Below, piece by piece: positions 38,145-55,637 of a stretch of DNA of 64,000 nucleotides (position 1 is the stretch's first letter; each line of letters starts with the position of its first letter). The notes under the pieces were generated by a model. The model had not been told where the DNA came from, searched no databases, and worked only from the letters and a program-made list of their open reading frames with translations. Source of the stretch: Escherichia coli. Lineage in GTDB: Bacteria > Pseudomonadota > Gammaproteobacteria > Enterobacterales > Enterobacteriaceae. Both the position numbers and the translations under genes were made by a program. The stretch lies in the NCBI RefSeq assembly GCF_009931435.1, contig NZ_CP043414.1; one strand, given 5' to 3'.

Positions 38145-38417
38145 TTAATGTATTCTGTTTATTTTCTTACCATTGAACATACTTTTATTGTCAGCTATCG
38201 CTGTTCTTCTGTTTGGCCCTCCTGTATCACTGTTGCTAAAATCACGAATTATGCTGTCAATTAAATCTCGTCGGAAAGCATTTTCCTCAGCCGATTTCAT
38301 TACGAGTAATTGCTTAATAAGAGTCTGCAACGAAAAATTTATCTTCATGCGTAATATCTGGAGCACCGCCTGGCCAGTAATTTCATGTTTTATACTTTCA
38401 TTATCAGATGTCTTCAT
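38145..38417 (-). CDS. ymgA: Small connector protein YmgA
   Basis: 90-aa translation matches YmgA. Confidence 0.8.
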   Translation of the reverse strand: MKTSDNESIKHEITGQAVLQILRMKINFSLQTLIKQLLVMKSAEENAFRRDLIDSIIRDFSNSDTGGPNRRTAIADNKSMFNGKKINRIH

Positions 38418-38459
38418 AACGACTTCATAGTTAATCTGTCAAATAATCAGGCTGTCACA

Positions 38460-38696
38460 TTATTCAAAAAGCAACCCAATTAGTGAATTGTAGTGTTTCT
38501 GTTCCTCTTCCCCTGTCGCTTGCTCCAGTCGACAAAGAAGTTTGGTACAAAGCGACTTTCGACTCAGATTACGTCCATCTTTCAAAATTTCAGTCACAAT
38601 TTCCCCGAGGGTTTCCTGCTGAGTAGGCAAGTTAGCTTTTGCAAAGTAACGAGTAATTGCCCCCGCAGAATCTGAAATCACTGAATTTTGCTGCAT
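38460..38696 (-). CDS. ycgZ: Small protein YcgZ
   Basis: 78 aa MQQNSVISDSAGAITRYFAKANLPTQQETLGEIV...; matches YcgZ; first gene of the ycgZ-ymgA-ariR-ymgC operon. Confidence 0.8.
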   Translation of the reverse strand: MQQNSVISDSAGAITRYFAKANLPTQQETLGEIVTEILKDGRNLSRKSLCTKLLCRLEQATGEEEQKHYNSLIGLLFE

Positions 38697-39009
38697 GCTA
38701 CGCCTCTATTAAAAATGTTAAACGTTGTTAAGTGCAGTAACAATAGCAAACTTGTACGAAATATGTGTACAGAATGATAAATTATTTTTTTGCAATTAGT
38801 GCTAACACCTATAAAACAATGAGATACGTAAAAATTATTTGCATCATTTGACTGACAACCTATACAAGATTCCAAACGAACTCATCTTCAACTTTTTCCA
38901 CCTTTTATAAATGTAAAGAAACAGTTATGTTTTGGTATTAAAAGAAAGACACAAGCAGATATGTCTGTTACCGTCTTACTCTCGCCTCGCCCATTACCCT
39001 GGATTGTTA

Positions 39010-40221
39010 ATGCTTACCACCCTTATTTATCGTAGCCATATACGTGACGACGAACCTGTCAAAAAAATCGAAGAAATGGTTTCGATAGCAAATCGCAGGA
39101 ACATGCAGTCTGACGTAACAGGGATCTTACTGTTTAATGGTTCTCATTTTTTCCAGCTTCTGGAAGGTCCGGAAGAACAGGTTCAACTGATATATCGGGC
39201 CATATGCCAGGATCCACGGCATTATAATATTGTTGAACTGTTGTGCGATTACGCGCCTGCTCGCCGTTTTGGCAAAGCAGGAATGGAATTATTTGATTTA
39301 CGCCTGCACGAGCGAGATGACGTTTTACAGGCCGTATTCGACAAGGGTACATCAAAATTTCAGCTAACTTATGATGACAGAGCGCTACAATTTTTTCGTA
39401 CTTTTGTCCTTGCAACCGAACAAGCAACCTATTTCGAGATCCCTGCCGAAGACTCCTGGCTTTTTATCGCTGACGGTTCTGATAAAGAACTTGATTCCTG
39501 TACCCTTTCACCAACTATAAACGACCACTTTGCCTTTCATCCTATTGTCGATCCCTTATCGCGGCGAATAATCGCTTTTGAAGCCATTGTGCAAAAAAAT
39601 GAAGATAGCCCATCAGCTATAGCGGTTGGGCAGCGTAAAGACGGGGAAATCTACAAAGCGGATCTCAAAAGTAAGGCACTTGCATTCGCGATGGCACACG
39701 CACTTGAGCTCGGTGATAAAATGATTTCAATCAATCTATTACCTATGACCCTGGTTAACGAGCCTGACGCGGTCTCTTTTTTACTTGATGAAATAAAGGC
39801 CAATGGTTTGGTGCCTGAACAAATTATCGTGGAATTTACTGAAAGTGAGGTCATATCTCGGTTTGATGAATTTGCCGATGCTGTTAAATCACTTAAGGCT
39901 ACCGGTATGAGTGTAGCAATTGACCATTTTGGCACAGGTTTTGCTGGTTTGTTACTCCTGTCACGCTTCCAGCCTGACAGAATTAAAATCAGTCAGGAAT
40001 TGATTACCAATGTTCATAAAAGCGGGCCTCGGCAGGCAATTATTCAGGCGATCATAAAATGCTGTACATCACTTGAAATTCAAGTCTCTGCGATGGGTGT
40101 GGCAACACCAGAAGAGTGGATGTGGCTTGAATCTGCAGGAATTGAGATGTTTCAGGGAGATCTGTTTGCCAAAGCTAAATTGAATGGTATCCCTTCAGTT
40201 GCGTGGCCGGAGAAAAAATAA
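39010..40221 (+). CDS. bluF: Blue-light sensor BLUF-EAL protein (anti-repressor of BluR)
   Basis: 403 aa from MLTTLIYRSHIRDDEPVKKIEEMV... (BLUF domain) with C-terminal degenerate EAL domain; matches BluF (YcgF). Confidence 0.9.
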   Translation: MLTTLIYRSHIRDDEPVKKIEEMVSIANRRNMQSDVTGILLFNGSHFFQLLEGPEEQVQLIYRAICQDPRHYNIVELLCDYAPARRFGKAGMELFDLRLHERDDVLQAVFDKGTSKFQLTYDDRALQFFRTFVLATEQATYFEIPAEDSWLFIADGSDKELDSCTLSPTINDHFAFHPIVDPLSRRIIAFEAIVQKNEDSPSAIAVGQRKDGEIYKADLKSKALAFAMAHALELGDKMISINLLPMTLVNEPDAVSFLLDEIKANGLVPEQIIVEFTESEVISRFDEFADAVKSLKATGMSVAIDHFGTGFAGLLLLSRFQPDRIKISQELITNVHKSGPRQAIIQAIIKCCTSLEIQVSAMGVATPEEWMWLESAGIEMFQGDLFAKAKLNGIPSVAWPEKK

Positions 40222-40425
40222 TTTTCAGCACATTATTTCACATGATTTCTGGAAATCATCGTGAAAATGAATACGTTATGTTTTAATTTAATCCACATTA
40301 AAAATAATGTTTTATCCAATTTAGCTGAAATCTTATTTATACTTTGTACAATTTTAGCGTATATTGTACAAAGTATTATTGGGTCGTGTACAGGCGACGG
40401 AGATTTATGAGCGCAAGGAGGAATT

Positions 40426-41157
40426 GTGGCTTATTACAGCATTGGTGATGTTGCTGAACGTTGCGGGATTAATCCTGTCACTCTCCGGGCCTGGCAACGC
40501 CGCTACGGTTTGTTAAAACCACAGCGCAGTGAAGGCGGACACCGACTCTTTGATGAAGAAGACATACAACGCATCGAAGAGATCAAGCGTTGGATAAGTA
40601 ATGGCGTCCCTGTAGGCAAAGTTAAAGCATTACTGGAAACCACCAGCCAGGATACGGAAGATGACTGGAGCCGCCTGCAAGAAGAGATGATGTCAATTCT
40701 TCGTATGGCTAATCCTGCCAAACTACGCGCGAGAATTATTTCACTGGGTCGAGAGTACCCGGTAGATCAATTGATTAATCATGTTTACCTTCCTGTTCGT
40801 CAGCGTCTCGTGCTTGATCACAACACCTCCCGCATTATGAGCAGTATATTTGACGGCGCATTAATTGAATACGCAGCAGCCTCACTTTTCGAAATGCGCC
40901 GTAAGCCCGGTAAAGAAGCCATTCTAATGGCGTGGAATGTTGAAGAGAGAGCACGATTGTGGCTGGAAGCATGGCGTTTATCATTGTCAGGATGGCATAT
41001 TTCTGTCCTTGCTGATCCCATTGAATCGCCGCGCCCGGAACTGTTCCCGACGCAAACATTGATTGTCTGGACAGGCATGGCACCAACGAGAAGGCAAAAC
41101 GAACTTTTACAACACTGGGGTGAGCAAGGTTATAACGTCATCTTTCATGCCCCCTAA
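40426..41157 (+). CDS. bluR: MerR-family transcriptional repressor BluR
   Basis: 243 aa, N-terminal Mer[31 protein letters not shown]; matches BluR (YcgE). Confidence 0.9.
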
Positions 41158-41378
41158 TTTCACCTTTATCCCGCCCCTTAGACAGAATCTTATAATCTGA
41201 ACCCACAACAGCGTTTGTACCGGAGCTGATCCGTTGCAAAATGCTCACCGGGAGAATTCAGGTAACCCCCCCTTTCACACTTTGTACATATCACAGCCAA
41301 AGGACAGACCAGCTTGAAGTGAGAAAACCGATCGTGCACACTACGCACTCTCACAACTAACAAAAGGTTATTATCCTG

Positions 41379-41783
41379 ATGGATCAGGTCGTTGTTTTTC
41401 AAAAGATGTTTGAAAAAGTGAGAAAAGAGCAAAACTTTTCCTGGTTTTATTCAGAGTTAAAACATCACCGTATTGTGCATTACATTTATTATCTGGCTAC
41501 GGATAACATCAGAATTATTACTCACGATGAAACAGTTTTGTTATTAAGAGGAAACCGTAGCCTGTTAAAAGTCAGTACAACCAAAAACCCAGGAAAAATT
41601 AAAGAGGCGGCATTGCTTCATATTTCTGGGAACTCTACATTTTGGGAGTATTGTACAACACTGGCAAGTGCTGGCGTTTTCCGCTGGGTAACCGATGTTA
41701 ATAACAACAAACGCGGCTACTACGCTATTGATAATACGCTGTTGTATGTTGAAGATGTGGAAAATAACAAGCCATTAATCTAG
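41379..41783 (+). CDS. ycgX: DUF1398-family protein YcgX
   Basis: 134-aa translation matches YcgX. Confidence 0.8.
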   Translation: MDQVVVFQKMFEKVRKEQNFSWFYSELKHHRIVHYIYYLATDNIRIITHDETVLLLRGNRSLLKVSTTKNPGKIKEAALLHISGNSTFWEYCTTLASAGVFRWVTDVNNNKRGYYAIDNTLLYVEDVENNKPLI

Positions 41784-42177
41784 CAAAATTTTAACACATC
41801 AGAGATCTATCATAATTCAGTAAAATAACAAAATATTATCAGGAACGAGTTAACGCTGCTCATAACAGTCAAACCGATACTATAAAACCCAATAATTGAA
41901 ACCTTTTCATCATGTCAGTAAGATAGTCATCCTTATGATCTTTATATAAAAAAGCCAACCATGGTGGTTGGCAAAGTGGCACAAACCAGCATAAAAGCTA
42001 TGCTTTGTTTAAAAACCTTCTTTAAATTAAATATATATCGTCCTGACTAAACAGAACTAAAACGGAATGAATTATTTAATCATGTTACTAAATTTGATTT
42101 TGTTTAGCCTCTGTTGAGATCCCTTGTTTTAAATTTCATTTGGATAAAATTCTTAATTAAATCCTTGGGAGTCAATT

Positions 42178-42438
42178 ATGTCTATGCAAAGTCAAGGAAT
42201 GAACTTTGAAATGAACCTATACGCATATTTGAATAAATATGATAGTCGGCTTTCAGAAGAAAAACTTGCAATTGATAAGGCAGTTAGAGATTTATATCTT
42301 TGCAACGAACGCGTGGATAACAAGAGAATTATACTGAAATTGCTCTCATTTTTATCATCTGCTGATGACATTGTTGAAAAAGATATTATCAGGAATGCTT
42401 TGGAAGTGGTGCTTCTTTTTACATTAGACGATATTTAA
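42178..42438 (+). CDS. AriR/YmgB-family small protein (additional paralog)
   Basis: 86 aa; C-terminal two-thirds align with AriR (…DNKRIILKLLSFLSSADDIVEKDIIRNALEVVLLFTLDDI vs …[40 protein letters not shown]); GGGAG RBS 8 nt upstream. Confidence 0.7.
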   Translation: MSMQSQGMNFEMNLYAYLNKYDSRLSEEKLAIDKAVRDLYLCNERVDNKRIILKLLSFLSSADDIVEKDIIRNALEVVLLFTLDDI

Positions 42439-42686
42439 GTCATCTCAGGAGTTTTAATACACGAAGAGTGCCCGGATACTAGCGATTATATTCATATTTA
42501 ATTATGAGTGCGGGGAAAGAGATTATGCATTGGCATATTTCTCTAACGTCCGCGATAGAAAAACAACTTTAAATATAAATAAAGAACAAACCACCTTTGC
42601 ATTCAACCTCATCTGAGCTGACTATAGTACAAATTATATTGATATTCTTTATCAACATCATTGGAACAGAAGAATAAGGCGAAGAA

Positions 42687-43010
42687 ATGAAGTGTATAGT
42701 AATTGATACTGTAATACAACCTTCGTGTGGTATATATTTTTCAGTCATATGGAGCGATATAAAAATGATCATTTGGTATCGTTCAAATATCTTTCTCCCA
42801 CCTGGCAGCATATTTACAGTTATTAAGTCAGGTATTATACTCGAGGATAAAGAATATCCGATCAGTATTTTTAACGTGGCGCTATTCAACAAAAATTTAT
42901 GGAATTTAATCAAAAATAGTCAAGAGTGTCCTACAGAATCAAACAAAATTACGAATAAATGCCTGCATAAGCATTGCATTATGCAAATATGTCCACATGG
43001 TCTCAAGTAA
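42687..43010 (+). CDS. iraM: Anti-adapter protein IraM (stabilises RpoS; PhoPQ-regulated in K-12)
   Basis: 107 aa [31 protein letters not shown]...CPHGLK; matches IraM. Confidence 0.88.
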
Positions 43011-43061
43011 TGGGGGTTATTTAACCTTCCCTATATGCTATAGATAAATCTACCAAAAACT

Positions 43062-43090
43062 GCCCCTTCGTAGAGGGGCTCTATGATTTT
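43062..43090 (+). terminator. Rho-independent terminator after iraM
   Basis: gcccct tcgtag aggggc hairpin followed by T-rich tctatgattttgtttt. Confidence 0.7.
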
Positions 43091-43606
43091 GTTTTATTTG
43101 AAGGCATGGTGCTGAATGTATTCGTTGAATCCAGATTCAACACCTGAAGCTGCACTTAACCCATAATACTTGTTTCTGGTTCCTCTACCGAGTGGTCAAA
43201 CAATGATATGTATGTGACGTCAGAGTTTATTTTTTTAGTGTTTAATGCTATTAATTTAACGTAGTTACCTATCTTTTTTCTACCTTCTGAACTAACCTTA
43301 GGTTTCAACGTATCCGGCAGGAGGGGCTATCCCCAATCTTAAATTTTGCTTCCCGATTTGCTCAAGCCAAAGTTTTAATTTTACAACCTATAAACCTGAG
43401 TTAAATCAACCTCATGGTGCTGTCTGTTCCCGCTGTGGAACAAGACTCACTGCAACATCTTGCATTCCTAAACTTCGCAGAAGGCGATGGGCAAAAACTG
43501 TACTGTAATGTTATTTCGATGTCTCTTATGGTAAATAGGAGGCGTCGAGGCTAAGTGAGTAGCCTGCTTGCTTCTCAAGCCTGGATACTATCAGCATTCA
43601 CGTCAG

Positions 43607-43645
43607 ATGAAATGATGATATTTCGCGTAAGAAAGAGGCATTTTT
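43607..43645. repeat. 39-bp repeat, copy B (see 33961..33999)
   Basis: 37/39 identity to the sequence just upstream of the autotransporter gene. Confidence 0.8.
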
Positions 43646-43744
43646 TTATCAACTTCACATCGGAGATGGTAATAATCCTATGGGTCCAGTCCATATGAGG
43701 GGGTCAACATACTATAAAATTCACAATCATAAATTAACTATATA

Positions 43745-45220
43745 TCAAGAACGCCAAAAAAATCCTGAAAATAGTATAATAACAGGGTAAATTTCAAGTC
43801 GACCAAGAATCATAGCAATACACATGAGATATTTTGCAATATCATTAAGAACACCGAATGAGGATGCGGTAGCCCCAAAACCCAGCCCCATATTATTAAT
43901 GCATGCAGCGACTGTCGCAAATGATGTAAGGAAATCATATCCCATACCGTTTAGCACCAGTATAAAAAACACTGTAAAGAAAGTATAAAGAAAAAAGAAA
44001 CTCCATACAGACCTCATTACGCGGTCTGTAACAATCTTCCCTCCTACATTTACACTAAGCAATGCTCTGGGATGAGAAAGCTGATTTATTTCGTGTTTAC
44101 TTTGTTTAAAAAGTATAAGAAATCTAAGTGATTTAATTCCGCCGCACGTTGAGCCTATACATCCCCCAAAAAAACTTGACAGCAGCAAAAAAACTATCGT
44201 ATGTGTGGGCCAGTTTGAATAATCCTGCGTAGCTAAACCATTATCAGTGAGCATGGAGCTAGCAAGAAAAAACGAATGAACAACACTTCCAGTTAAGTCA
44301 TACATACCTATATGCCAGACCTGGAAAGAGGTAACAATGATAACACCTGAAGCTATTAACAAAAAGAAACGAAGTTCAACATCTCTGAGTAAGGGTTTTA
44401 TTGTTTTCCTGCTTATAACAACATACCAAAGAGTGAAGTTGAAAGCCGATAACAGAGAAAAAGAGCCCGCCACCAGTTCAATCAAATAATTATTGAAATA
44501 ACCGATACTCTCACTATGAGTTGAAAAACCGCCAAGAGAAACTGTAGAAAGTCCATGACAAATAGCATCAAACAACGGCATTCCTGCAAGTCGATAACAA
44601 ACAATACAAGCAATGCCTAATAAAGAATAAGTTATCCAAAGTGTCCGCGACGTATCAGCCAGGCGTGGAGTCAGTTTGTCATCCTTAAATGGTCCTGGCA
44701 TTTCTGACTGATAAAGTTTTGCACCACCAATACCCAATAATGGCAACACAGCAACTGCCAGAACAATAACCCCTAAACCGCCTATAAAATTTAATTGTGA
44801 CCGGTAGAACAAATATGCCCGAGATAATGAACTGACATCATCAATTACTGTTGCTCCTGTTGTTGTTATTCCGGAAACCCCTTCAAACAGCGCGTCAGCA
44901 AACGTTAAATTAAGCTCTGAATCAATCCATAATGGAAATGCGCTAATAATAGAAAATAAAATCCAAAACATTACAATTATAATAAACCCATCACGGGTGC
45001 GTAATTGAATGCCAGATTTTTTAGTGGTATACCACGCTCCGCCACCAATACAAAAAAATATAACAAAAGTAATAAAAAAAACGAACAAGCTTTTTTCTTT
45101 ATAAAACAATGCTACAACCATTGGTGGTAACATTGAAAGACTATAGAGCCAGACCAAGAACCCACACATATGAGTTACAACTCTTACATGAGATGTATTC
45201 ATATCCAAATGTTCTTTCAA
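43745..45220 (-). CDS. TrkH/TrkG-family K+ uptake membrane protein (orphan, AT-rich)
   Basis: About 485 aa multi-TM protein; family-typical segments FADALFEGVSGITTTGATV, GGIKSLRFLILFKQ, ILGRLEIYPVIILFSGFFWRS parallel TrkH (ITDAFFESFSGLTTTGATT, GGLKVIRILLLFKQ, LFGRLEVFTLLVLFTPTFWRE). Track ORF begins with TTG at 45220; first ATG at 45202. Confidence 0.8.
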   Translation of the reverse strand: MKEHLDMNTSHVRVVTHMCGFLVWLYSLSMLPPMVVALFYKEKSLFVFFITFVIFFCIGGGAWYTTKKSGIQLRTRDGFIIIVMFWILFSIISAFPLWIDSELNLTFADALFEGVSGITTTGATVIDDVSSLSRAYLFYRSQLNFIGGLGVIVLAVAVLPLLGIGGAKLYQSEMPGPFKDDKLTPRLADTSRTLWITYSLLGIACIVCYRLAGMPLFDAICHGLSTVSLGGFSTHSESIGYFNNYLIELVAGSFSLLSAFNFTLWYVVISRKTIKPLLRDVELRFFLLIASGVIIVTSFQVWHIGMYDLTGSVVHSFFLASSMLTDNGLATQDYSNWPTHTIVFLLLSSFFGGCIGSTCGGIKSLRFLILFKQSKHEINQLSHPRALLSVNVGGKIVTDRVMRSVWSFFFLYTFFTVFFILVLNGMGYDFLTSFATVAACINNMGLGFGATASSFGVLNDIAKYLMCIAMILGRLEIYPVIILFSGFFWRS

Positions 45221-45629
45221 TTATAACCACCTTACTGCAATGTCATGATTATACTGTATAAATTTTAACTCTTCTTAGATCTTACTTCACTGGTCCTTAT
45301 GAAACAATCAGCAAAATGAATCTTATTATAACACTGTTCGGTTATGTATTGTTGAGCCTTCCCGCTGGGCCTGCATCATTACAAGTCGCTCCCTATGGGG
45401 CTTTGTCGAATAAATAATTTTTCGGTAAGTGTCCCCTGAGCAGGTTGTATCTTCAGGCAGTATGAACACTTTCTGGTATACCTACCTTCGTCATTATGTT
45501 CAGCGTATGCACCATGACCAAAGCCTCTGCAACCGGCCTATCATAATCTAGCAGCATCAGAGAACCTCAGAATAACTGTTTTACCCTGTACATTGCCGTT
45601 TCCGCTATTGAGCAACGATTGTAATCTTT

Positions 45630-47617
<1,988 letters not shown>

Positions 47618-48113
47618 TCAATCGCTGATACGCGACTGCACAGTTACGGTCGGCATACTCACCGGGCCAGTAACCCGCTCCTTTTTGGGGTGGGATGAGC
47701 GCGCTGATTTTCACACGGCGCAGCTGCTCGTAACAGAGCCGAGAGGCGTAAACTCCGTCTGCTGCTGTCCTGATTTTTTGATGGGTTTGCCGGATTAATC
47801 CGGCTACACCTCTACATCCGTTACGCTGAATGCTGAGGTCGCCCTTGGGAAGAAGGCATTGCTGACTTATACCAATCCGAAATCACCTACTCGTCCAACC
47901 AGACAGGGAGGGGCCTCGGTTGATAAGAGCTCTGTTATTGATGTGCCAGTTGGTGATTCTAACTTTTGCTTTGTAACGGGACGAGCCGTGTTGGCAGATG
48001 ATGTGTGGTCTGATCCTTAAACTCAGTAAAAGTACGATTTATTCAAAAAAGCCCCTCCACTATGATTTCGATTTAAGGGGCTGATGATTATGTAACGCGA
48101 ATTTACCGGATCC

Positions 48114-49499
<1,386 letters not shown>

Positions 49500-49811
49500 T
49501 CAGGGGGGTTGATATTCCGGATCGTGCCGTGTTTGCCCACGGCTCCCCCTGGAGAGCTGCAGACCTGTTTATTTAACTCGCACAGCGCCGGGGCCTGTCA
49601 GTAAACAGGGAGCATAACCGTCGTGCCATTAAACGCCAGACGGGAGATCATTATTATTTTATTAATACAGATCCGTTGCATTCCGGTCTTTACCGCAGTT
49701 TAAAAGAAAAGAGAATAGGGACTTAGGCAGTAGAGCAGTCATTGGACAGACCACACTACCCCAAACTAGCAGGGGAGTTTTGATAAAATTTTAATAACCG
49801 TTAGCAGGCTA

Positions 49812-49845
49812 ACAAAAAAACAACGGGCGTGTTATACGCCCGTTT
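49812..49845 (-). terminator. Rho-independent terminator after icd
   Basis: On the minus strand: aacgggcgt ataac acgcccgtt hairpin followed by tttttttg. Confidence 0.8.
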
Positions 49846-49867
49846 CAATATTTAACACATGTAGTGA

Positions 49868-51118
49868 TTACATATTCTTGATGATCGCGTCACCAAACTC
49901 TGAACATTTCAGCAGTTTAGCGCCTTCCATCAGACGTTCGAAGTCATAGGTTACGGTCTTGGCATTGATTGCGCCTTCCATACCTTTAACAATCAGGTCA
50001 GCCGCTTCAGTCCAACCCATATGGCGCAGCATCATCTCAGCGGAGAGGATGATAGAGCCTGGGTTAACTTTGTCCTGACCAGCATACTTCGGCGCAGTAC
50101 CGTGGGTGGCTTCAAACAGCGCGCATTCGTCACCGATGTTTGCGCCTGGGGCGATACCGATACCGCCAACCTGCGCTGCCAGAGCATCAGAAATGTAGTC
50201 ACCGTTGAGGTTCATACAGGCGATAACGTCGTATTCAGCCGGACGCAGCAGGATCTGTTGCAGGAATGCGTCAGCAATCACGTCTTTAATAACGATCTCT
50301 TTGCCGGTGTTCGGGTTTTTGACTTTCAGCCACGGCCCGCCGTCGATCAGTTCACCGCCAAACTCTTCACGCGCCAGCTGGTAACCCCAGTCTTTAAACG
50401 CGCCTTCGGTGAACTTCATGATGTTGCCTTTGTGCACCAGGGTCACAGAGTCACGGTCGTTAGCAATTGCGTATTCGATCGCGGCACGAACCAGACGTTT
50501 GGTGCCTTCTTCCGAACACGGCTTGATACCGATACCGCAATGTTCCGGGAAGCGAATTTTCTTCACGCCCATCTCTTCACGCAGGAATTTAATCACTTTC
50601 TCAGCGTCGGCAGAATCAGCTTTCCATTCGATACCCGCATAAATGTCTTCCGAGTTTTCACGGAAGATAACCATATCGGTCAGTTCAGGATGTTTAACCG
50701 GGCTTGGGGTGCCCTGATAGTAACGTACCGGACGCAGGCAGATGTAGAGATCCAGTTCCTGACGCAGAGCTACGTTGAGAGAACGAATACCGCCGCCAAC
50801 CGGAGTGGTCAGAGGGCCTTTAATGGCAACGCGATATTCACGAATCAGATCAAGGGTTTCAGCAGGCAGCCAGACGTCCTGACCATAAACCTGTGTGGAT
50901 TTTTCACCGGTGTAAATTTCCATCCAGGAGATTTTACGCTCGCCTTTATAGGCTTTCTCGACTGCAGCGTCGACCACTTTCAGCATGGCTGGGGTTACAT
51001 CTACACCGATTCCATCACCTTCAATGTAAGGGATAATCGGATTTTCAGGAACGTTGAGTTTGCCGTTTTGCAGGGTGATCTTCTTGCCTTGTGCCGGAAC
51101 AACTACTTTACTTTCCAT
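49868..51118 (-). CDS. icd: NADP-dependent isocitrate dehydrogenase
   Basis: 416 aa [45 protein letters not shown]...; matches Icd. Confidence 0.96.
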
Positions 51119-51289
51119 TCACCTCTCCTTCGAGCGCTACTGGTTTGCTCGTCTGCCACCACGTTGCATATGCGTTTGCGTCCTGCGATACGGATGCGTT
51201 AGAGCAATTTTTTGTTAATGATTTGTAATTAGCTTGTCAATACTACCCTATTGTTTGCCGTCATGAAAGATGCGCGTTATTAGGCTATA

Positions 51290-51943
51290 ATGCGGCACTT
51301 CATAATCTCTGAAAATACCATGCAAAAAACTTCTTTTAGAAATCACCAGGTTAAGCGATTCAGCTCGCAACGTTCTACCAGGCGAAAACCTGAAAACCAG
51401 CCCACGCGTGTGATCCTGTTCAATAAACCCTACGATGTTCTTCCGCAGTTCACCGATGAAGCCGGACGCAAAACATTAAAAGAATTCATCCCGATTCAGG
51501 GGGTGTATGCGGCAGGTCGTCTCGACCGCGACAGCGAAGGGTTACTGGTGCTGACCAATAACGGCGCTTTGCAGGCGCGTTTAACCCAGCCGGGTAAACG
51601 TACCGGGAAAATCTATTATGTACAGGTAGAAGGTATTCCCACGGAAGACGCCCTTGAAGCGTTGCGCAATGGCGTAACCTTAAATGATGGCCCTACCCTG
51701 CCCGCAGGTGCGGAGATGGTTGAGGAGCCGGAATGGTTATGGCCCCGTAATCCGCCAATTCGTGAACGAAAAAGTATTCCCACCAGCTGGCTTAAGATCA
51801 CCTTATATGAAGGACGTAATCGCCAGGTGCGCCGCATGACCGCCCATGTTGGTTTCCCCACGCTGCGACTGATTCGCTATGCGATGGGGGATTACTCTTT
51901 GGATAATCTTGCCAATGGCGAATGGCGAGACGCGACAGATTAA
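51290..51943 (+). CDS. rluE: 23S rRNA pseudouridine(2457) synthase
   Basis: 217 aa; RsuA-family catalytic motif [19 protein letters not shown]. Confidence 0.9.
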
Positions 51944-51952
51944 GGATGCAAA

Positions 51953-53574
<1,622 letters not shown>

Positions 53575-53609
53575 TTATTGTCTTTAATTACAACAAGGAA
53601 GCAGTGAAC

Positions 53610-54251
53610 GTGGCAAAGAATTACTATGACATCACCCTCGCCCTGGCCGGAATTTGTCAGTCGGCACGCCTGGTGCAACAACTCGCTCACCAGGGGCATT
53701 GTGATGCCGATGCGCTACACGTCTCACTCAACAGTATTATTGATATGAACCCCAGCTCGACGCTGGCGGTTTTTGGCGGTAGCGAAGCCAACCTGCGCGT
53801 CGGGCTGGAAACCTTGCTCGGCGTGCTCAACGCCAGCAGTCGCCAGGGCTTAAACGCTGAGTTAACCCGCTACACCCTTAGCCTGATGGTGCTTGAGCGC
53901 AAACTCTCCTCAGCGAAAGGCGCGCTCGACACTCTGGGCAACCGGATCAACGGCCTGCAACGACAGCTCGAACACTTCGATTTACAGTCCGAAACGCTGA
54001 TGAGCGCGATGGCCGCCATCTATGTTGATGTTATCAGCCCGCTAGGCCCGCGCATTCAGGTCACCGGTTCCCCTGCTGTACTGCAAAGCCCACAGGTGCA
54101 GGCGAAAGTCCGCGCCACCCTGCTGGCAGGCATTCGCGCCGCCGTGCTCTGGCACCAGGTCGGCGGCGGACGTCTACAACTGATGTTTTCTCGTAATCGC
54201 CTGACCACTCAGGCAAAACAAATTCTTGCTCATTTAACCCCGGAGTTGTGA
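53610..54251 (+). CDS. hflD: High-frequency lysogenisation protein HflD
   Basis: 213 aa from GTG start (V)[28 protein letters not shown]...; matches HflD. Confidence 0.9.
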
Positions 54252-55625
<1,374 letters not shown>

Positions 55626-55637
55626 GCCTCAAATCAG

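Follow-up and report, generated by a model that had tools for sequence, protein, structure and literature searches.

Elements of the e14 and phage 21 kind have long been known to integrate into icd and to bring a surrogate 3' end for the gene with them, as Hill, Gray and Brody in 1989 and Wang et al. in 1997 reportedly described. In the database record of phage 21, an ICDH-like pseudogene is followed by a terminator and then by three attP subsites, and the icd fragment adjoins int and xis in both 4A7 and phage 21. In K-12 MG1655, the annotated boundary of e14 lies 165 nt before the icd stop codon, and the displaced native remnant, icdC, is found at the element's opposite end. The phage 21 site in icd is also used by NC-SV-like prophages (PMC12803456). 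As approximately 1,900 extra copies of the icd fragment were present among 5,426 complete E. coli genomes, elements that target icd are therefore common.

The window analysed here, a stretch of 64,000 nt from E. coli contig NZ_CP043414.1, contains an intact icd gene. The last 165 nt of this gene including the stop codon, together with its terminator (49817-50032), are likely to be the surrogate end delivered by an icd-targeting lambdoid element of the e14 or phage 21 kind. On one side, icd is flanked by genes of the usual E. coli 26-min region (rluE, nudJ, mnmA, hflD, purB, phoPQ and potABCD), and on the other side, past a 6.8-kb island, by an iraM-like region, ycgX, bluR and bluF. The gene is on the minus strand, and nucleotide n of icd corresponds to window position 51119 - n. 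The features at the end of the gene are as follows.

49868-51118, minus strand: icd, encoding NADP-dependent isocitrate dehydrogenase of 416 aa, intact (translation and NCBIfam equivalog NF005425, 859 bits)
49817-50032, minus strand: 216-nt segment, the probable surrogate 3' end, comprising icd nt 1087-1251 (54 codons and the stop codon) and 51 nt that include the terminator
50016-50031, minus strand: predicted core (crossover) interval, icd nt 1088-1103
49822-49844, minus strand: intrinsic terminator hairpin of icd, AACGGGCGTATAACACGCCCGTT followed by a T run, located by a terminator scan within the 216-nt segment
49720-49816 (left limit approximate), minus strand: e14-family attP arm relic, from alignment to the e14 left end in the K-12 locus (L001, approximately 1926-2030)
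49797-49789 and 49786-49778, minus strand: arm-type repeats TTATTAAAA and TTATCAAAA, respectively, of the TTATYAAAA type, predicted to be integrase sites

An element-derived icd 3' end had been proposed in the first-pass annotation for the interval 49868-49960, on the grounds that the C-terminus appeared to differ from that of K-12 at two positions in the final 20 residues. Alignment with the MG1655 gene (L001 624-1874) returned the same C-terminus and exactly two differences, D398E and E414K, both within the final 20 residues. The reading of these differences as a mark of element origin has to be turned around, as it is K-12 that carries the e14 end and the window protein that matches element-free strains. 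Window Icd is identical in XH992, GPEC709, 07_3986, JNE21-009 and GSH8M-2, in all of which iraM comes directly after icd with nothing inserted, and Icd of lysogens, for example ATCC 11775, is also residue-identical to it. At the protein level, this WP_000444487.1 type, which occurs in lysogens and element-free strains alike, is more common in E. coli than any other. D398 belongs to the icd end that e14 supplied to K-12. E414 is not specific to e14, because icdC and the element-free strain 8600 share the C-terminus GEAIIENM, and both K/E414 and D/E410 are ordinary polymorphisms. As the C-terminus of K-12 is itself the e14 version, K-12 is a misleading reference for the end of icd. The proposed interval was also too narrow, with 49817-50032 being the relevant unit. 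What upholds an element-derived end is the identity of this segment, its linkage to an arm sequence and its boundary; the amino acid reasoning does not.

The limits of the segment are those of the icd fragments carried by phages, which extend from icd nt 1088 to 51 nt after the stop codon. The free phages 4A7, 1W, 3W, Perceval and Lambda_4C10 matched the window only at 49817-50031, with 99.1% identity (2/215 differences for 4A7), and records of phage 21 matched the icd 3' segment within the same limits at 94-97% identity. The terminator hairpin is also part of the phage-borne copies, and a terminator is annotated at the same position in phage 21. ATCC 11775 carries a lambdoid prophage that is complete, its int gene coming directly after icd and an icdC remnant lying approximately 47 kb away. 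Its attL copy had no differences from the window segment (0/216), whereas the part of the gene upstream differed at 38/1086 sites (3.5%). The native icdC of the same strain differs from its attL at eight sites (nt 1104, 1116, 1119, 1146, 1155, 1158, 1245 and 1254). The e14 attL of BS-04 (NZ_CP172819.1) differed from the window at 2/216 sites, nt 1090 and 1092. Differences from the window segment amounted to 8-17/216 in five element-free strains and two icdC remnants, and to 5/216 in a sixth element-free strain, GSH8M-2. Within this small panel of six strains and two remnants, the window segment is nearer to the element-borne copies than to the native ones. A segment with at least 99% identity was found in 1,041 of 5,431 E. 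coli records, and the best 40 of these had two copies each; identity reached 100% in many records, all of them with two copies. In an even sample taken down the ranking, each record with at least 99% identity contained two or more copies or, where this was checked, an integrase beside icd, for example JKHS006 and the O157:H7 strain F8092B, representing its group.

The left boundary can be narrowed down from several comparisons. The attL and attR of ATCC 11775 first differ at nt 1104, and phage homology starts at nt 1088, both in 4A7 and at the attR junction of ATCC 11775. In the window, sites specific to the lineage extend to nt 1071, and informative sites of the element type begin at nt 1104. 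From these positions we infer that the crossover site would lie in nt 1088-1103.

With the boundary fixed beforehand at nt 1086/1087, the difference between the two parts of the gene in the comparison with ATCC 11775 was significant (Fisher p=0.0014). A free maximum chi-square scan for a single breakpoint in the same pair selected nt 1071 with a permutation p of approximately 0.10, which is not significant, in part owing to the near-invariance of icd over its first 300 nt. This near-invariance in all strains is also the reason why nt 302-305 were selected instead in several pairs. In the first panel of ten strains there were 6 variable sites in icd nt 1-303 (window 50816-51118) and 68 in nt 303-1071, a distribution which distorts naive breakpoint scans, and a recombination breakpoint near nt 303 is not claimed, as few sites there are variable across the panel. 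Against the element-free alleles, no significant 3' cluster of substitutions was detected (3.0-3.8% vs 5.1-7.9%, a modest excess that was mostly not significant). The change in divergence that had been anticipated at the att core is therefore present in the comparison with ATCC 11775 and with the close relatives described below, but mostly falls short of significance against element-free alleles.

These results could also be produced if the 3' end were native and vertically inherited, with phages having captured a similar host allele and the island having been inserted after the terminator in some other way. The protein shared with element-free strains and the non-significant free scan agree with such an origin, as does the distribution of the individual bases: every allele of the window haplotype is present in some element-free sequence (GSH8M-2, 8600 or icdC). 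GSH8M-2 carries the window haplotype at nt 1120-1302 with iraM directly downstream, icdC of K-12 has the window bases at nt 1104-1164, and the window bases at nt 1116 and 1119 are shared by icdC and 8600, with icdC also sharing that at nt 1104. The bases 1230C, 1245T and that at 1254 were dropped as SNPs diagnostic of elements, as the element-free GSH8M-2 has the same bases. Since all bases of the window haplotype occur in element-free sequences, the phage icd copy is within the range of variation that is normal for E. coli, and the argument for an element-derived end therefore rests on the whole haplotype, the boundaries and the arm linkage. A native end has to be reconciled with a 5' allele that is approximately 3-5% diverged from other E. 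coli, whereas the adjoining segment has 100% identity to copies in the prophages of unrelated strains. Taken together with the arm sequence and the relatives considered below, this makes vertical inheritance very unlikely in our view.

The sequence after the terminator differs between the window, which reads TTGTTAGCCTGCTAACGGTTATTAAAATTTTATCAAAACTCCCCTGCTAGTTTGGGGTAG..., and element-free strains, which read ATTTATGTGG... toward iraM. Approximately 100 nt after the window terminator are homologous to the left end of e14, and at this point e14 has three TTATCAAAA repeats and the window has two arm-type repeats. The arm relic also contains a CCCC...GGGG inverted repeat. At the corresponding position there are three TTCCCCAAAA repeats in phage 21 and 4A7, and the phage 21 record names them as the attP subsites P1P2P3. 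Neither TTCCCCAAAA subsites of the phage 21/4A7 type nor an int gene follow the terminator in the window, which reads TTGTTAGCCTGCTAACGGTTATTAAAA... there. Judging from the sequences compared, the icd fragment joins such arm sequence only within elements, so the junction at 49816/49817 would be internal to an element, and this homology to an e14 attP arm speaks against a native end. By the same comparison, the window locus is most likely the attL of an e14-family element. A hybrid origin, with a 21-type fragment and e14-type arms coming from two elements, was considered and is unneeded, as the complete e14 of BS-04 has both.

A second sequence resembling the terminator and arm is present approximately 0.9 kb beyond icdC or icd in K-12 and XH992. 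In K-12 it lies in the gap between ymgK and ymgL (L001 17945-18034; 75% identity over 92 nt to window 49863-49775), and in XH992 (L005 3704-3752) it has 88% identity over 49 nt to the terminator of icd and the beginning of the arm relic. An icd-integrated element of older date may have left this sequence behind.

Beyond the arm relic, the island consists of the following features.

43048-49813: 6.8-kb island, from the icd terminator to the iraM-like region, a decayed element remnant
48114-49490, minus strand: 458-aa ORF with an internal duplication, the first island gene after the arm relic
45631-47584, minus strand: IS100 (IS21 family), 1,954 bp, inside an IS5 remnant (Pfam rve and IstB_IS21)
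46476-47498 and 45697-46479, minus strand: istA and istB, respectively, the genes of IS100
43745-45220, minus strand: trkG-like potassium transporter gene (TrkH family), island cargo (Pfam TrkH, E=5.7e-143)

The same island occurs in approximately 18 RefSeq E. coli genomes, in which a hypothetical protein, an IS5 fragment and trkG are annotated, and the feature names of homologous database matches include IS100. The island of 2020CK-00188, in which trkG is annotated, is without IS100 and otherwise 99.8% identical. A 5-bp overlap of the alignments at the IS100 gap (against 2020CK-00188, L002) suggests a 5-bp target duplication. The two halves of the 458-aa ORF have 43% identity over 72 aa (E=1e-11). 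This ORF had no match in Pfam, NCBIfam or PADLOC, and a tblastn search of 50,697 phage records was negative; its matches to PHROG 11707 and 10109, which are families of unknown function, were weak. Its position is one that in elements of the e14 family is occupied by variable cargo, for example lit or a DUF262 gene. In K-12, trkG belongs to the Rac prophage, and the island would accordingly be a patchwork of remnants from different elements.

No integrase or excisionase was found among the island ORFs (the 458-aa ORF, istA, istB and trkG), and none is annotated in the island of 2020CK-00188. A second icd 3' fragment, corresponding to icdC, was found neither by a repeat search in the window nor by blastn of 38000-50100 with E values up to 1e-5. 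The e14 gene set (ymfD, ymfE, lit, intE and xisE) is absent, with blastn against K-12 e14 giving matches only at 49778-50100. With both integrase and icdC missing, the island is a relic in a state of decay, and no prophage or cryptic element is resident today.

The other end of the island is less easily explained. Homology to the element-free XH992 is interrupted between window 49814 and 43047, two points that lie approximately 10 bp apart in XH992. At the right end of the island, native sequence thereby begins again almost precisely at the point where the 216 nt would stop, which a simple model of a decayed prophage does not predict. With both its ends flanking the native 216 nt and downstream sequence, the island looks like a simple insertion, and this is a further point on the side of a native icd end. 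A deletion at the T runs of terminators is a possible source of the coincidence.

The surroundings of the island are uneven in their relationships. The iraM-like region (window 42682-43047) is approximately 80% identical to iraM of K-12 and XH992, and the neighbouring ycgX/bluR region is 87-91% identical, making the iraM side unusually diverged. The flank from rluE to potC (51200-64000) had no more than 98.5% identity to any of the 5,426 complete E. coli genomes, and is discordant with the island side (41000-49900), where the island is 99.8% identical to that of 2020CK-00188. This suggests a transfer of the island and icd region between lineages, or else a collection in which the source lineage is not represented. 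Farther away, a large ORF on the minus strand (31403-33940) contains tandem repeats of 54 nt and repeats spaced by 105 nt (window 33015-33493), and an AIDA repeat-containing protein is annotated in what is roughly the corresponding part of the region in 2020CK-00188.

The relatives that share both the island and the distinctive 5' allele of the window allowed the segment to be compared in a nearly constant background. There are eight such strains, nine with the window. Nucleotide diversity among the nine was 0.040 in the segment, 0.012 upstream and 0.008 downstream, i.e. three to five times higher inside the segment. N96 and 2017-02-2CC differ at 16/216 sites in the segment and at 6/1658 in the flanks (p=2e-11), and the window and MFDS1022581 at 16/216 and 10/1658 (p=1e-9). 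Four further segment haplotypes were present in the eight relatives, and these do not track the flanks. A localised cluster of 3' substitutions, which the first-pass annotation had led us to expect, was thus seen among the island-bearing relatives, and on either side it ended at the limits set by att. That the closest relatives differ from the window inside the segment while being nearly identical in the flanks is not what a vertically inherited end would give.

Within the segment, nt 1104, 1116 and 1119 are C, C and A in all eight relatives but T, G and T in the window. From nt 1183 on, half of the relatives (4/8) do not differ from the window, two of these already from nt 1165, and N96 and MFDS1022581 differ from the window as far as nt 1301. 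Only the window, among the nine strains, has the full prophage-type haplotype. As the window alone is of the prophage type and its relatives share another state, nt 1104-1164 of the window may represent a more recent replacement, although we hold this loosely and would put it at somewhat below an even chance.

Another explanation would be that a short patch was imported by ordinary homologous recombination, through transduction or conjugation, from a different E. coli strain that was perhaps a lysogen, with no site-specific integration in this lineage. In E. coli, icd has a mosaic structure, and recombination commonly leaves short patches. The sister strains WL297 and 2013C-4282 carry a separate patch, at nt 828-975, and the window differs from its nearest relatives in the segment only at nt 1104-1164. 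Such an import would need its left end in nt 1072-1103, coinciding with the att core. On the other side, the replaced tracts of N96 and MFDS1022581 reach to approximately 2 nt from the homology limit at 51 nt after the stop codon, with the relic downstream unchanged. Generic imports are not expected to be bounded by a repeat that is defined by att, whereas exchange between attL and attR is, and we therefore regard the import of a patch as unlikely, if somewhat less so than vertical inheritance. Tracts bounded by the repeat would be the expected product of exchange between the two copies during a later lysogeny, and this could take place by gene conversion, or by loss of the prophage through homologous rather than site-specific recombination. 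Chimeras formed by recombination between icd and icdC have been described on e14 excision or loss in evolution experiments (bioRxiv 10.64898/2026.06.14.732165).

We therefore favour an element-derived surrogate end, which could have arisen as follows. In elements of this kind, a tyrosine integrase recombines attP with an attB inside icd, here probably within nt 1088-1103, and as the element has its own icd 3' end and terminator beside the arm sites, the gene is left intact after insertion. An element of the e14 family would have integrated in this lineage in this way. What survives of its left junction would be the surrogate end with two of the three e14-type arm repeats behind it, whereas the integrase, most of the element genes and the displaced native icdC would since have been lost and replaced by a patchwork of the 458-aa gene, the IS5 remnant, IS100 and trkG. 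Among the strains with the relic, the segment would then have been turned over repeatedly, probably via the integration of later icd-targeting phages, with homologous recombination between the two 216-nt repeats leading either to their loss or to conversion of the resident copy. The version in the window would be the full haplotype that is seen today at prophage junctions.

A more specific and rather doubtful possibility is that the left junction, although orphaned, still functions as an attB and is flanked by a 216-nt cassette that is swapped by successive icd-targeting phages differing in arm specificity (e14-type and 21-type), with gene conversion or homologous loss between the duplicated fragments as the means. 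The icd 3' haplotype would then record serial lysogeny even where there is no prophage. In the same proposal, the arm relic may encode an antisense sRNA resembling STnc150 that ends at the icd terminator. A match to STnc150 (Rfam RF01402), a family of Hfq-binding sRNAs of Salmonella, was obtained on the plus strand at window 49655-49854 with 31.7 bits (E=5e-5), and the K-12 e14 left end (L001 1887-2093) scored 28.7 bits, both being well below the gathering score of 60 bits for membership of this family. The STnc150 consensus includes an icd-type terminator and two TTATCAAAA-like repeats, and STnc150 may itself derive from an e14-family attL relic beside Salmonella icdA.

If the favoured reading is correct, icd-targeting elements have integrated at this locus in the past, and a central metabolic gene can retain a functional end and a terminator of element origin long after the element was lost. 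As icd is an MLST locus, it would also follow that its 3' end carries phage history and not strain history.

Several known systems come close to this arrangement. The attL of K-12 e14, as in the window, has element-supplied sequence of 165 nt of coding region and 51 nt beyond it at the same position in icd. After the terminator there are TTATCAAAA arm-type repeats, and approximately 100 nt of sequence past the terminator are homologous. The two copies differ at 28 sites (13%), with two residues changed (D398 and E414), and K-12 has the third arm repeat and keeps intE, xisE and icdC, whereas the window has none of these genes, nor ymfD, ymfE or lit. In BS-04, a window-type 216-nt haplotype is combined with e14-type arms, as in the window, but in a complete e14 (ymfD, ymfE, lit, intE and xisE) with a second icd fragment, both of which the window lacks. 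The arm region of BS-04 is identical to that of K-12 e14, and that of the window is approximately 85% similar, with indels. The icd fragments of BS-04 (L022 7169-7384) and K-12 (L001 1710-1925) differ at 30 sites. As these two e14 elements share arms and yet carry different icd fragments, elements seem to exchange the 216-nt fragment flanking att in the manner of a cassette.

Phages of the phage 21/4A7 kind (Jouyvirus and Bievrevirus) and the prophages in ATCC 11775, JKHS006 and O157:H7 have icd fragments with the same limits as that of the window, and those of 4A7 and ATCC 11775 are 99.1-100% identical to it. In phage 21/4A7-like elements the fragment is followed by three TTCCCCAAAA repeats and then by int and xis, unlike the e14-type repeats without int in the window. 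The likeness to the Salmonella sRNA STnc150 is shared by the window and the K-12 e14 left end.

To summarise, a surrogate icd end is a well-known and ordinary feature of E. coli which leaves the protein unchanged, and our understanding of how icd-targeting elements work is not altered by this locus. Cassette-like turnover at an orphan junction would be mildly new. The window is most likely a further instance of the known arrangement, in which an orphan left junction of the e14 family carries a prophage-type cassette.
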